NCBI GenBank assembly: GCA_000165345.1 | Contig: CM000432.1 | Coordinates: 864,001-928,000 of the forward strand | Direction: 5' to 3' | DNA: 64,000 bases | Part shown: positions 16,066-28,705 of the stretch, one piece after another | Numbering within the stretch: the stretch's first letter is position 1 | Layout of the letters: each line of letters opens with the position of its first letter | The notes under the pieces: generated by a model | The model's database searches: none | What the model saw: only the letters and a program-made list of their open reading frames with translations | What the model was told of the DNA's origin: nothing | Translations under genes and position numbers: made by a program

Positions 16066-16078
16066 TTTTTACCGCCAC
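16066..16078. promoter_or_regulatory. TTTTTACCGCCAC GC-box variant upstream of the family gene at 17362.
   Basis: The variant TTTTACCGCC recurs at 28495, 32641, 38055 and 19155. Confidence 0.3.
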
Positions 16079-17361
16079 ATATTCTCAGAGTTGCCAAATG
16101 GAAAGCTACATGCATTTGCTCGAATTTTTGTCAAAGAATTTGCAGAATTAAAGTTTTAAAGTGAAGAGCATTTATGCAAGTCTATGCATGTATTTTTTGT
16201 GGCATATTAATGATTGTTAGAATCCGAAGTTTTTTTTAAATGAGTATTTTACGGGAGAAATCACTAAATAGTTATTTACTATTATTTTCACAAGTTATTT
16301 TTCCCTTATTCACACCGATCTTAGAAGACTGGAAATTAATTTAATTGGATAAAAGTTTGACATTTATGAATAATCCAAGTTCTTCAAAAAAAAAAAAATA
16401 ATAAATAATATATTGAGTTGTCTCGCATTTGGTCAGCATATGACTCGTGAGGTACTACTTTCTTTAGTGATTCCGTGTGTTTTGATGGGTTTTGTAAAGC
16501 GATTCAAAAAAGAAGTTATTATTATTATTATTATTATTAGCTCAGAATTTTTCTTTATTGAGATAAATTTGCAGGATCTAATAATTATTTGTGTACTTAG
16601 ATGTTTTTTATTCTCTACTTATGACTTAAGAAATTTTAGGTATGAATCATTAATATATTTTAATAGAGAGGAAGAGAAAATGGAGGTGAGTAGTAGAAAT
16701 AGAGGAAAGAAGGAGGTGCTGTAGAAGTTCATATTGAATAGGATTGCCGATTGACTGGTTAGACGGTCTGAATAATAAAATATATACTTTTCATGACTTT
16801 ACCTACAATATAATACTTCTTTAATTAAAAGAGACAATAGAAAGAAAAATAATGATTAAAGCGGTGGATATAAAGTGGGACGAGCTGAAAAAGCAGAAGC
16901 ATAAATTAAAATGCACAAATATCTACAAGTATTAAGTATTCTAGTTGACTCTGATCTTTTTTTTTTTTCTTAAACTCGAAAATAGACATAAAATGATTAT
17001 GGCGGGAGTGAACACTTTTTCTATGCAATAGTTACATATGCGGTATCTAAGAATAATTTCAAAATTGACAATTTAGATATTAAATTAAAATTCAATTATT
17101 TGATTTCAAATAGAGAAAAAAATTAACGTTTGTATTTTCTCTATGGTTTTTGATTTTTTTCTTAAAATATTTGTTTCTATGGAAATTTAAGTTTCTTGGC
17201 AAGTTAAACAGCATATTTATTACATGATAAATATATTTGATAAAGATTTAGATCATTTTTTCTTTTATAGATTGGTTTTCTTTAAAGAGTTTATTCGTAA
17301 GCAGTCTGCAAGTTTTATATTATAGTTTCGTATTTTTTTTTACTATAGGTCAAGCATAAGA

Positions 17362-18342
17362 TTGCAAAAAAAAAAAAAAAAAAAAAAATTACTCTATGAA
17401 ATAATCTTCATAATAAAGATTATAATATTTTTAACTATTATAATATTTATTCAAGTTCATTTTGAATTAAAATTTCAGAATGAATTGAATTCAATTTATG
17501 TTATTGACAATTTCTCGTTTCTAACTGCAGCTTCTTCACTTCATTCTAATAGGAAAGGAAGTAATAGTCGTCATACAGCAGGAAGAGTTGGAGCATATAG
17601 TGGTTTGAACTCTGAATTCAAAAGACTCTGTTCAATTGATATTAATGAACAAGAATCTACCGAGTGTAGAAAAGAAGTCTTGTTTGAAGATGTTTCTTGT
17701 GAAAAGTTAGAGGAGCTATTACTTGAGGTTAATGAAGAATTTGAAGAACTTGAACATAATACTGAACCATTAATGAATTTGAAAGTAATTAGTGTCTGTT
17801 TAGCTCAGTTAAAGGAGATTGAAGGTCAATCAGATCCTGTTGGGATGGCTAACTATAAACAATTCAAAAGATTAATGCAATCAGTTAATGCTGTTAATAA
17901 AGCTAATGAAAACTTTTTGAAATTTATTATTAAGCTTGAAACAGAAATGTCGATTGCTTCAAGCTTAATATCAGAACTTGGTATCTTATTATTAAAGTGT
18001 ATTGAATCTATTTTATTAGAATCAACAAAGCTTTCTGAAATTCATCATTTTATTAAAAATTTAAAATTAATGAATAAAATGATTAGAAACATAACTAGAC
18101 ACGTACAATCTGTATTTAATAAATATTGTCAAGAAAGAAGTTTAAGAACCCTTGAAGAGTCAATTCTTGGGCTAAAATCTCAACTTTCCAAGAAGCAAAA
18201 GACTAAAAGTCAAAGTTCCACTCATTCTTCTGTTACTTCAACATCTACATCTACTCCTAGGAGTCGCCCTACTAGACCAAAGGCTTATATGGCCCAAACT
18301 TTAAGTTCTAAGACAAAAGGAAGAGAAAAATACTCTAAATAG
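17362..18342 (+). CDS. Secreted family protein, array member 2. The 5' end is unresolved: the track start is TTG and there is no in-frame ATG upstream of the hydrophobic segment.
   Basis: The frame is open from 17362 to 18342. It has a hydrophobic N-terminal segment IIFIIKIIIFLTIIIFIQ, then HTAGRVGAYSGLNSEFKRLCSIDINEQEST (family motif), a coiled-coil region and a Ser/Thr-rich tail. A 23-nt poly(A) run at 17366-17388 lies at the 5' end and would encode K8. An acceptor-like ...AAATTTCAG|AATG at about 17475 is also present. Confidence 0.55.
   Translation: MQKKKKKKKLLYEIIFIIKIIIFLTIIIFIQVHFELKFQNELNSIYVIDNFSFLTAASSLHSNRKGSNSRHTAGRVGAYSGLNSEFKRLCSIDINEQESTECRKEVLFEDVSCEKLEELLLEVNEEFEELEHNTEPLMNLKVISVCLAQLKEIEGQSDPVGMANYKQFKRLMQSVNAVNKANENFLKFIIKLETEMSIASSLISELGILLLKCIESILLESTKLSEIHHFIKNLKLMNKMIRNITRHVQSVFNKYCQERSLRTLEESILGLKSQLSKKQKTKSQSSTHSSVTSTSTSTPRSRPTRPKAYMAQTLSSKTKGREKYSK
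17366..17388 (+). repeat. (A)23 homopolymer.
   Basis: Read directly in the sequence. It is a sequencing or slippage hotspot at the 5' end of the gene at 17362. Confidence 0.9.
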
Positions 18343-18643
18343 ACCTAAAGACATTAAACTTATTGTTATTCAACATTTTTCTATCAATAGAATAAAACTT
18401 TTACTTGATCTATTCCAAGTATAGGTTTATTTATTTAAATACATATAAAGAAAATGAATGTATTAATTTAATATTTCTCATTTTTATTAAACTCTTTTTC
18501 TAGATTTGACTTAAAAATATGATAAATTGAGAAATTTAGAATATCAGGTAAATTCTATTTAATGTTATAAAGGAAGAATTTCTATGTTAGTATATTAAAG
18601 AAAATTCAACATACCGTTCTTGTATATATGCAATATTTAAATT

Positions 18644-18660
18644 TTGCATGCATGCATTTC
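18644..18660. promoter_or_regulatory. TTTGCATGCATGCATTTC double G-box.
   Basis: Tandem overlapping GCATGC elements lie in the intergenic region between the family genes at 18342 and 19415. Confidence 0.35.
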
Positions 18661-18811
18661 AAATTCTAGCTATCATATTAGTATATTAATTTTAGTAAAA
18701 TGACAAATTCCCTCATAACATTATTCAAACCCACAATTCAAGATCCTTTCGATAATTCCTCTTCATTCTTCCAATAATTTGTTCATATTTTTTTAGAAAT
18801 TTCTCTAAATT

Positions 18812-18854
18812 TATATATATATATATATATATATATATATATATATATATATAT
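18812..18854. repeat. (TA)n microsatellite, about 21 units.
   Basis: Read directly in the sequence. Confidence 0.9.
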
Positions 18855-18930
18855 TGCTAAATTCTAGATTAAATACATATTTTAATACACGAGTTTATTA
18901 GCTACTAAATAACAATAATTTTTTAAAATA

Positions 18931-26611: not shown

Positions 26612-26825
26612 TTAGTAACTGATTATTTCCATACAAATTTTCCATAAACTGTTATTTCATGCAGAATTAATAGAGAAATTTTTTATGGCTTAACCCATTT
26701 TAACTTTTGAAAATAAAAAGCAAATATCAAGATCAACTGAAATTGTCTCATTTTACAATTTCTATTTGTTATAATTATTCCGCATGATTTTTATTGCAAC
26801 ACATAAATACAAGAGGAAGTATTTA

Positions 26826-26897
26826 GCGAGCAGAAAATCCGCCTCTAGTAATCTCGGATTTGCGCGTGGGGTGATATTGTACACTGGGCTTTTTTTG
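26826..26897 (+). ncRNA. Candidate small Pol III-type RNA: a GC-rich 70-nt island ending in a T7 run inside a 2.1-kb gene-free interval.
   Basis: GCGAGCAGAAAATCCGCCTCTAGTAATCTCGGATTTGCGCGTGGGGTGATATTGTACACTGGGCTTTTTTT. It is far more GC-rich than its surroundings, has internal complementarity (CCGCCTC / GCGCGTGGGG) and an oligo-T terminator-like end. No known family was recognised. Confidence 0.2.
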
Positions 26898-27595
26898 ATT
26901 TGTGAACAAATGAGATTTGTTTCCAATTAATGATTATTAATTTTTATCGCCAATATATTTCATTTATTATAGCTAGTATATTGTTTGATCAAATATATAT
27001 AAAGATACAAACATATATAAAACAAAGGTTTTATGATCGAAATTATTATTAATAATATAATTCACTATTCTATGGAACAAGAATAGAGGCATACTAAAAT
27101 GTGATGGATAAATAAGTACGTTAGAGTTAAAAAGAAACAAATACTTTACTTTCTAAGTTGTTAGATATTGTTTTTATTGGCTGCATGATATATTAAGTTT
27201 GAAAGATATATTATTAGTTAATTGTTTTTTGCGTGTGTGTCTGTGTTGAGGGGGGAGGAGTAAGTGAGTGTCAATATAGTGATAGTTTTTTTAAATCACA
27301 CTTACTTGATCTTATAGTTATTCATTAAATATAAAAATTATTAGGTGAATTTAAGATTATTAGAATTATAAGTTAAACAGAAGAATATAATTATTTGATT
27401 AAATAAAACAAAAAAAAAGAAAACTATATATTATTTCTAGATTTATTAAATTGAATTTCCACACAATTCAAAATATAAAACTTACCATCAATTTAATGAA
27501 AAGTTTTATCAAAAGGTTAATTTATCTTTTTGTTTTTTCTCCTTTATTTTCATTAATTTTTTTATTTTTAGTAATTATACAAAAAATTCATATAA

Positions 27596-27606
27596 TTCGC
27601 GCCAAA
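27596..27606. promoter_or_regulatory. TTCGCGCCAAA E2F-like GC-box upstream of the family gene at 28706. A second site TTTTACCGCCCTAC lies at 28495-28508.
   Basis: GC islands in the AT-rich promoter region. Confidence 0.4.
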
Positions 27607-28241
27607 TCATGCATAAATGTCAAATGGTCGTAACTGACAAATTGCATGTTTACCGCTCAATTGAATTTAAATTAAAATTAAATAAGGATTTGAATAAAAA
27701 TTTTGTAGAAAATACAAAAGCGAGAATGATGCTGAATATAGAAGTAATAATATAATTATATAAAAGATATTTAGTATTTATGTAAGAAAAATAATAAAAT
27801 ATTATTGATAATTTTAGACAGTATGTTTTTCCTATTAAGAATACTAAAAAAAAAGGAAATCAATCAAGTTCTATAATAATTAAATTTGCTGTTTGGTTAT
27901 TTAAATTTGTAATTTTATTTTAAGAAGTTAATTATTAGATTTCTACATAGCATTATAAATATAGAAAGAAAATGAATAAGGTATTTTGGTATGGAGCGGC
28001 GGTAAAAAAAATAGCTAATATGAAATAATAAATTTAAGAGATGTTTTGTCCGAATAAAATTCTCTTTTATATATCTATCAGAATATATAAATCGTTGATT
28101 TATTCTTAAAAGTTCGTATTTCCATTAAAAAATGATTAAATTAATTTCTATTTATAGGCTATGAAAAGTTTTTAACCAATAAAAAAAAAAAAAGAAATTA
28201 CAAATATGGAATAATGACACGTATTAATATTATGCAAATAT

Positions 28242-28271
28242 ATTACATGCATTTTTATATATTGCATGTAA
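28242..28271. repeat. Perfect 10-bp inverted repeat ATTACATGCA...TGCATGTAAT with a 10-bp AT spacer.
   Basis: Read directly in the sequence. Both arms contain the CATGCA half of the G-box motif. Confidence 0.8.
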
Positions 28272-28705
28272 TATATTTGTTTATTTATTTATAATTTACA
28301 TACTAAAATAAAAAATGAGTATGCACTTAGTTACTGATAGCCACACATCAAAGTAAACATCTTGATTAACAAGAATTTGAAGGATTATTTACTTGGATAA
28401 TTTATTTAATATAAATGTATATAAATATAGAAATTATGGTTGATTTCAATCATTAAATAATTAAAAATGACTAAATCCAGTCAATTCATAGAAATTTTAC
28501 CGCCCTACAAATTTAGGCCATTAAGAAAAGAATATCGTCTATAATTCAAGAAATAACAATTATTCATGTCAGGTGGTTCTATATAATCATTTTTCAAGGC
28601 TGGTGGATTGTTTATGTGTTGGAATGATCCTATTGTTACTTTGATATTTACTTGGTTTTACAGTAACTCGTTTATTTTGTATTAAATATAGTAAATTAAT
28701 AAAAG

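Follow-up and report, generated by a model that had tools for sequence, protein, structure and literature searches.

E2F-like GC boxes upstream of a secreted-protein gene array in Cryptosporidium parvum as probable instances of a general promoter element

We analyzed a 64,000-nucleotide (nt) stretch of chromosome 4 DNA of the Cryptosporidium parvum type (GenBank assembly GCA_000165345.1, contig CM000432.1, positions 864,001 to 928,000 of the forward strand), hereafter called the window and numbered from its first letter. The window carries an array of seven genes of a secreted-protein family with short GC-rich boxes upstream. A first-pass annotation, made from the letters alone, had taken these boxes as a sign that the array is co-regulated by one GC-box-binding factor. 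Our reading, to which we assign a probability of about 0.85, is that they represent the known Cryptosporidium E2F-like upstream motif, which acts as a general promoter element and is not specific to the array. The GC content of the window is about 30%. Its non-coding DNA amounts to 25,021 nt (39% of the window) with 25% GC.

Genes and boxes of the array locus

The array lies next to the gene of the C. parvum antigen Cp23/cgd4_3620, for which the N-terminus MGCSSSKPETK has been published (PMC5549699). The seven open reading frames (ORFs) past Cp23, here called g0 to g6, are probably cgd4_3630 to cgd4_3690 because this is the gene order after cgd4_3620. The genes are as follows, with protein lengths in amino acids (aa).

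11199-11534, minus strand: Cp23 gene (cgd4_3620), a 111-aa ORF with the N-terminus MGCSSSKPETK
12729-15632, plus strand: g0, 967 aa, Ser/Gly-rich, secreted-type; probably cgd4_3630
17362-18342, plus strand: g1; probably cgd4_3640
19415-20152, plus strand: g2, 245 aa with signal peptide; probably cgd4_3650
21495-22543, plus strand: g3, true start at 21495; probably cgd4_3660
23736-25142, plus strand: g4, 468 aa with signal peptide; probably cgd4_3670
25751-26611, plus strand: g5, 286 aa with signal peptide; probably cgd4_3680
28706-31846, plus strand: g6, 1046 aa, a glycine-rich repeat protein; probably cgd4_3690

The description of cgd4_3690 in PMC6532270 fits g6. The genes g0 to g6 form a true paralogous family (tblastn links g1-g4, g6-g3/g2/g1, and g0-g3/g6), and the C-terminal domain of g0 is paralogous to g3 and g6 with E-values of 5e-8 and 4.5e-6, respectively. 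The family is left unnamed, as ten proteins of the window, the whole array among them, gave only sub-threshold noise in a Pfam scan. In a homology search, g5 had homologues solely in intestinal Cryptosporidium species, with identities of 87% in C. hominis, 82% in C. tyzzeri, 71% in C. meleagridis, and 50% in chipmunk genotype I.

Both strands were scanned for the E2F-like cores [C/G]GCGC[C/G] and GGCGGG, which we call strict boxes, and for the variant ACCGCC. The eight strings quoted in the first-pass annotation are all present, namely GGCGCC at 12019 (with GCATGC at 12035 and 12041), TTTTTACCGCC at 16066, TTTCCCGCCAA at 18931, TTTTGGCGCCAAT at 20644, GTGGCGCCAATTTG at 23381, TTTGGCGGGCC at 25575, TTCGCGCCAAA at 27596, and TTTTACCGCCC at 28495. 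The same is true of the copies at 46156, 50119, and 53753, which had been named there as a caveat. The strings had been described as of the TTTSGCGCC type. This applies to 12019, 18931, 20644, 23381, 25575, and 27596, where the core is present, but not strictly to 16066 and 28495, which carry ACCGCC and are one base off. The statement that every array member has an upstream box stands as well (7/7), except that for g1 a site 1.3 kb away had been cited and the proximal GGCGGG at 17001 overlooked. Further boxes that had been missed lie at 12372, 12424, 19158, 25182, and 27998. The boxes of the array are listed below.

12019-12024, no strand: GGCGCC in the divergent promoter between Cp23 and g0
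12372 and 12424: CGCGCG and GGCGCG, respectively, extra boxes in the Cp23/g0 divergent promoter
16071-16076, plus strand: ACCGCC variant (TTTTTACCGCCAC), 439 nt past the g0 stop and about 1.3 kb before g1
17001-17006, plus strand: GGCGGG, the proximal box of g1, about 361-403 nt upstream
18934-18939, plus strand: CCCGCC (TTTCCCGCCAA), 481 nt upstream of g2
19158-19163, plus strand: ACCGCC variant, 257 nt upstream of g2
20648-20653, no strand: GGCGCC (TTTTGGCGCCAAT), about 847 nt upstream of the g3 start
23383-23388, no strand: GGCGCC (TGGCGCCAATTTGAAACT), 353 nt upstream of g4
25182-25187, plus strand: CCCGCC, 40 nt past the g4 stop and 569 nt before g5
25578-25583, plus strand: GGCGGG (TTTGGCGGGCC), 173 nt upstream of g5
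27598-27603, plus strand: CGCGCC (TTCGCGCCAAA), 1108 nt upstream of g6
27998-28003, minus strand: GGCGGT variant (reverse complement of ACCGCC), 708 nt upstream of g6
28499-28504, plus strand: ACCGCC variant (TTTTACCGCCC), 207 nt upstream of g6

Box forms such as TTGGCGCCAA and TTTCCCGCCAA are regarded as candidate E2F/DP sites. The 2.1-kb spacer between g5 and g6 contains only short low-complexity ORFs according to an ORF search. Rfam (gathering thresholds) and tRNA scans found no RNA gene in the whole window; hence, known RNA genes do not account for the boxes in the long intergenic regions.

Enrichment, position, and conservation of the boxes

The boxes had been called strongly non-random for such AT-rich DNA, and this is borne out by 300 dinucleotide-preserving shuffles of the intergenic sequence (25,021 nt). 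The observed and expected non-coding counts were 17 and 0.44 for SGCGCS, 12 and 0.47 for GGCGGG, 8 and 0.72 for ACCGCC, and 5 and 0.09 for TTACCGCC. None of the 300 shuffles matched any observed count. The excess is about 25- to 40-fold for the canonical cores and 11-fold for ACCGCC, while the control hexamers GGGCCC, CCGCGG, and GCGGCG were not enriched over the intergenic shuffles. No box motif was enriched in the coding sequence of the window. Most sites are non-coding (17/20 for [C/G]GCGC[C/G], 12/15 for GGCGGG, and 8/8 for ACCGCC). Among eight orthologous loci, seven have about 1 box per kb of non-coding DNA compared with at most 0.36 per kb in genes, and the GC-richer C. canis locus has 2.27 per kb of non-coding DNA compared with 0.96 per kb in genes.

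The flanks of the 37 non-coding sites are biased. T is found at positions -3 to -1 in 17 to 21 of them (background 38%), and the two bases that follow the core on its 3' side are A in 21 to 23 of them (background 36%). The resulting form TT-SSCGSS-AA has the shape of the E2F consensus (TTTSSCGCSAAA).

The boxes are also positioned relative to gene starts. For 16 of 19 genes, the distance from the ATG to the closest upstream strict box is 140-560 nt, compared with 8.8 ± 2.0 genes when boxes are placed at random inside the same intergenic region. None of 5000 such trials, run with corrected gene starts, reached 16. Where an intergenic region includes a gene 5' end, it has about one to three boxes, and their usual distance upstream of the ATG is 150-550 nt. 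Five of the six convergent 3'-3' regions have none. A bias relative to ATGs, proposed in the first-pass annotation as a check, is accordingly present within the window, and coding copies occur at background frequency.

Conservation was examined spacer by spacer in MAFFT alignments. The array locus was aligned with C. hominis, C. tyzzeri, C. meleagridis, and chipmunk genotype I and the adjacent housekeeping-type region with C. meleagridis, chipmunk genotype I, C. ubiquitum, and C. canis. Only 1.3-3.5% of background hexamers are invariant in all four other species. In the array-locus alignments, the boxes at 18934 (where the background is 2.9%), 20648, 23383, 25578, and 32086 are unchanged in 4/4 other species, the box at 27598 in 3/3 aligned species, and those at 25182 and 32878 in 3/4. 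Outside the array, 43034, 44361, 51898, and 56405 are the same in 4/4 species including C. canis, in which the identity of the flanks drops to 33-49%. When hexamers were ranked without bias by their fully conserved fraction, GCGCCA came out on top (5/7, P = 3e-6), followed by CCCGCC, CGCCAA, CCGCCA, and GGCGCC, and the leaders were the same in the array and non-array sets. Other conserved hexamers were CATGCA (the AP2_1 motif) in the array and GTAAGT (splice donors of small intron-containing genes) outside it. The boxes are thus under purifying selection while their AT-rich surroundings diverge. Poorly conserved copies are found at 46158, 15697, and 50144, and the coding copies at 53753 (in the low-complexity part of eIF3c) and 19592 (in g2) are not conserved beyond the closest relatives.

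Some array boxes vary between species. The g1 box at 17001 is GGCGGG in C. hominis and chipmunk genotype I, GGCGGT in C. tyzzeri, and deleted in C. meleagridis. At 16071, ACCGCC is found in C. hominis, C. tyzzeri, and C. meleagridis and GCCGCC in chipmunk genotype I. At 19158, C. hominis and C. meleagridis have ACCGCC, C. tyzzeri has ACCGTC, and chipmunk genotype I has GCCGCC. The variant box at 27998 is invariant in C. hominis, C. tyzzeri, and chipmunk genotype I. Chipmunk genotype I has the canonical TTCCCGCCAA in place of the box at 28499, and the distance to its g6 is 194 nt. In C. meleagridis, the CGCGCC box lies only about 160-200 nt upstream of g6 because about 930 nt (window 27774-28705) are missing there (L002:10862-11973). 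These 930 nt are ancestral, as they occur in chipmunk genotype I at 67% identity, and C. meleagridis therefore has a deletion or an assembly gap. Their presence in chipmunk genotype I also rules out that they are an insertion that brought in the ACCGCC boxes. Chipmunk genotype I has an additional proximal GGCGGG 444 nt upstream of g3, which the parvum clade lacks.

A probable general promoter element and its alternatives

The motif is already known, and the array boxes are simply instances of it. It was reportedly first noted on chromosome 6 by Bankier et al. in 2003. Published forms, with a [C/G]GCGC[G/C] or GGCGGG core, are motif 3, DTTGSCGCCH, and motif 4, TTTGGCGGGAAV (Oberstaller, Joseph & Kissinger 2013, PMC3734150), and the tabulated [A/T][C/G]GCGC[G/C][A/T] (PMC12246861). 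This E2F-like motif is the most over-represented upstream motif of C. parvum. It precedes 161 of 200 expression clusters (PMC3734150, PMC4117751) and many long non-coding RNAs (lncRNAs; PMC7840661). In sporozoites, peaks from the assay for transposase-accessible chromatin with sequencing (ATAC-seq) show a single prominent E2F motif at monocistronic, bidirectional, and polycistronic promoters alike (bioRxiv 10.1101/2025.01.17.633476). The window boxes likewise occur at about one per promoter, bidirectional ones included, here read from the sequence alone. They agree with the published motifs in core and flanks, in being confined to non-coding upstream DNA, and in being nearly ubiquitous across promoters, and nothing essential differs. 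The earlier assignment to an E2F-type motif is in agreement with these features, as the boxes combine a [C/G]GCGC[C/G] or GGCGGG core and T-rich 5' and A-rich 3' flanks with a conserved, positioned, non-coding location.

Likeness extends to the eukaryotic E2F/DP site, which also has a CG-centered (half-)palindromic core with one T-rich and one A-rich flank. The structural basis of its recognition is said to have been described by Zheng et al. in 1999. The canonical site is TTTSSCGC, and the Arabidopsis forms cited in PMC3734150 are TTTCCCGCC and TTTGGCGGG. In animals and plants, it is the mark of a regulon for the cell cycle and DNA replication, whereas the window boxes occur at every promoter checked, including those of fast-evolving secreted-protein genes. 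No pRb partner is known in Cryptosporidium (PMC3734150). Cryptosporidium has been reported as the sole apicomplexan genus that keeps E2F/DP, and E2F/DP is the candidate factor named in PMC3734150, PMC4117751, and bioRxiv 10.1101/2025.01.17.633476. For C. parvum, the literature gives two DP genes and two to three E2F genes. The genes cgd1_1570 and cgd6_1430 encode E2F proteins, and no E2F or DP gene lies in the window.

We infer the identity of the factor and its activating function from the ATAC-seq literature and the match to the E2F consensus. An E2F/DP winged-helix heterodimer would bind the box and help to set up an open-chromatin promoter region. Transcription of the neighboring gene, or of the two genes in a divergent arrangement, would start from that region. 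Stage specificity would come from other elements or from site affinity.

Several points weigh against a general E2F-like promoter element. The nearest strict boxes of g3 (847 nt) and g6 (1108 nt) are far from the ATG. Some boxes are atypical for promoters, namely 25182 (40 nt past a stop), 46158 and 46248 (in a 3'-3' region), and the box at 50124-50135, which lies 15 nt past a stop in a convergent region and yet is conserved. The gene models are ORFs and orthologue calls made without transcripts, so the box distances refer to ATGs and not to transcription start sites. The data cover the 64-kb window, out of a C. parvum genome of about 9.1 Mb, and about 160 kb of orthologous DNA. Direct data on E2F/DP binding were not found in the literature searched, including that from 2024 onwards, and a 2025 review describes most regulatory components as lacking functional validation.

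It is conceivable, though doubtful, that the boxes are functional but bound by another factor such as an ApiAP2 domain or an unrecognized GC-box protein. E2F/DP binding in Cryptosporidium is predicted only, and the E2F/DP expression profiles do not follow all motif-bearing clusters (PMC3734150). However, core and flanks fit the E2F/DP consensus TTTSSCGC / [C/G]GCGC[G/C] (PMC3734150), and the motif and the retention of E2F/DP co-occur phylogenetically in the genus. AP2-type factors, which had also been put forward as candidates, are unlikely because the box is not among the binding specificities published for C. parvum AP2 domains. Protein-binding microarrays gave TGCAT, CACACA, and G-box motifs, and E2F is listed among the motifs that AP2 domains do not bind (PMC4117751). 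None of the AP2-domain motifs TGCAT, CACACA, and G[T/C]GGGG is contained in the box sequences. The ApiAP2 site TGCATGCA (AP2_1) is, like the boxes, over-represented in the non-coding DNA of the window (13 vs 0.17 expected) and partly conserved. It differs from them in sequence and in position, as it is found mostly 100-350 nt downstream of stop codons and not at promoter distance.

The variant TTTTACCGCC had been noted as recurring five times and as a possibly distinct site. Five copies are found for TTACCGCC, but only four are exactly TTTTACCGCC, the fifth being AATTACCGCC. That TTTTACCGCC is a separate motif with its own factor seems improbable to us. In its favor, ACCGCC has 8 non-coding copies against 0.72 expected and none in coding sequence, the excess of TTACCGCC (5 vs 0.09) is larger still, ACCGCC outnumbers the canonical GCCGCC in the window, and the motif text in PMC3734150 does not list it. 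On the other hand, A is replaced by G or C in an orthologue at four positions, 16071 and 19158 (GCCGCC in chipmunk genotype I), 32645 (GCCGCC in C. meleagridis), and 28499 (TTCCCGCCAA in chipmunk genotype I), which gives a canonical site each time. The reverse change is seen at 47333, where C. parvum has GCCGCC and chipmunk genotype I and C. ubiquitum have ACCGCC. ACCGCC also has the same T-rich flank and the same placement relative to genes, and it is one base off the published motif 3, DTTGSCGCCH, into which GCCGCC falls (PMC3734150). Because other species carry the canonical GCCGCC or CCCGCC at the same positions, TTTTACCGCC is probably a one-base variant of the same site class as the canonical box, presumably with lower affinity.

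A shared cis-element through which one GC-box-binding factor co-regulates the array is less likely still. Each array member has at least one upstream box, and the array boxes are kept in the orthologous arrays of four other species. A strict box, however, is also found upstream of all 14 other genes with a visible upstream intergenic region. Array spacers have 1.07 boxes per kb and the other spacers 1.43, and the median distance of the nearest box to the ATG is 361 nt for array genes and 380 nt for the others. The following boxes outside the array (no strand given) served as comparators.

32086-32883: boxes of the non-family gene 33323-34090, CCCGCC at 32086, ACCGCC at 32645, and GGCGCC at 32878
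38049-38054: CGCGCC, 381 nt upstream of the protein kinase gene (34429-37668, minus strand)
43034-44366: GGCGGG boxes at 43034 (TPR-gene promoter) and 44361 (V-ATPase subunit gene/BCNT promoter)
51898-51903: CCCGCC between the SPC12 and eIF3c genes
56405-56419: paired GGCGCC and GGCGGG in a divergent promoter, the same in 4/4 and 3/4 species, respectively

The non-array boxes are as well conserved as those of the array; the box at 38049, for example, is the same in 3/4 other species, and the C. canis locus ends short of it. An unbiased search of array against non-array intergenic regions found no conserved hexamer private to the array. Box type, number, and distance vary among the array members, even between the related g4 (GGCGCC at -353) and g5 (GGCGGG at -173). 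Among the cluster members listed by Oberstaller et al. (2013), cgd4_3630 is in expression cluster 105 and cgd4_3680 in cluster 30 (PMC3734150). These are the probable g0 and g5, two of the seven members with ids inferred from gene order, and their different clusters point against co-expression. A literature search by the gene ids cgd4_3630 to cgd4_3700 gave comparative-genomics mentions and one abundance table only.

As the box is present at every promoter checked, its presence says nothing on co-regulation of the array. The inference drawn in the first-pass annotation is unsupported rather than disproved because two members, with probable ids, are among those listed in the clusters. More generally, an E2F-like box upstream of a Cryptosporidium gene family cannot be used to argue for family-specific co-regulation because it is a near-universal promoter element. 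Beyond the published motif, our analysis adds two points that we did not meet in the publications consulted, namely the conservation of individual sites in as many as six further Cryptosporidium species and the exchange between ACCGCC and G/CCCGCC at orthologous sites. This conservation, which extends down to about 50% flanking identity and as far as C. canis, also yields precisely located sites, for example 23383, 25578, and 18934 within the array and 44361, 51898, and 56405 beyond it.

That the GC islands are functionless products of chance or composition carries practically no weight, for although single 6- to 8-mers can occur by chance and a few copies are poorly conserved, the excess over the shuffles with flat control hexamers, the strong positional bias, and the top rank of the boxes among conserved hexamers all stand against it. 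A relation of the GC islands to methylation or recombination was dropped because specific hexamers, and not GC in general, are enriched and conserved.

Unusual boxes and other features of the window

Conserved boxes also occur where no protein-coding promoter is expected, most clearly at 50124-50135 and also at 25182. The former is a tandem palindrome, GGCGCCGGCGCC, 15 nt past the stop of a 646-aa gene that converges with an SPC12-like gene, and SGCGCCGGCGCCA is kept in C. meleagridis, C. ubiquitum, and C. canis. This palindrome may be the promoter of an antisense or non-coding transcript. Boxes by gene 3' ends (25182, 50124-50135, and 46248) would suit such promoters, comparable to the motif upstream of lncRNAs. 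A tentative and rather unlikely extension is that the grammar of the boxes, and not their presence, carries regulatory information. Boxes away from promoters would then mark antisense or non-coding units, or weak and strong boxes would set level or timing, and the ACCGCC form may add a class of graded affinity.

The GCATGC/TGCATGCA sites are found at the following positions.

5189, 5198, 10866, 18646, 22784, 22854, 25251, 38476, 38586, and 46174: GCATGC/TGCATGCA

Ten of 14 AP2_1 sites lie within 360 nt of a 3' end, compared with 6.7 expected (P about 0.02, with some sites forming adjacent pairs).

g1: The start codon is ATA in the window (17362-17420), right after a run of 23 A, and ATG in the orthologues; the C. 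hominis and C. tyzzeri proteins begin with MKI(I/M)IFLT. In the window, the next ATG in frame follows at 17773, and a start there would drop the signal peptide. Either the start codon was lost or the assembly has an error. The C. meleagridis orthologue (L002:1965-2668) is spread over three reading frames and is likely a pseudogene.

g3: The gene is disrupted by two frameshifts relative to the C. tyzzeri and C. meleagridis orthologues. The first, in the T7 run at 21501-21507, cuts the ATGATG start and the signal peptide off the ORF. The second is seen as a change of the tblastn frame near 22008-22016. Either g3 is a pseudogene or it has homopolymer errors.

g6: The orthologue of cgd4_3690 was called lost in chipmunk genotype I by PMC6532270. 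Contrary to this, tblastn matches the N-terminal 265 aa of g6 there at 51% identity in a syntenic position (L003:17025-19442), and the match sits within a called 805-aa gene. The g5-g6 spacer of chipmunk genotype I has about 6 kb of extra DNA.

Outside the array, the two longest seemingly empty spacers contain small intron-bearing genes that the ORF scan had overlooked. The counterparts of 42665-45105 in the orthologous loci carry annotations for a V-ATPase subunit (PF05493) and for the 5' exon of a gene with a BCNT domain, and those of 50110-52441 for the signal peptidase SPC12 subunit (PF06645). Finally, a run of about 12 G at 46346-46357, unusual in DNA of about 75% AT, adjoins the stop codon of a methyltransferase gene (46358-47122, minus strand).

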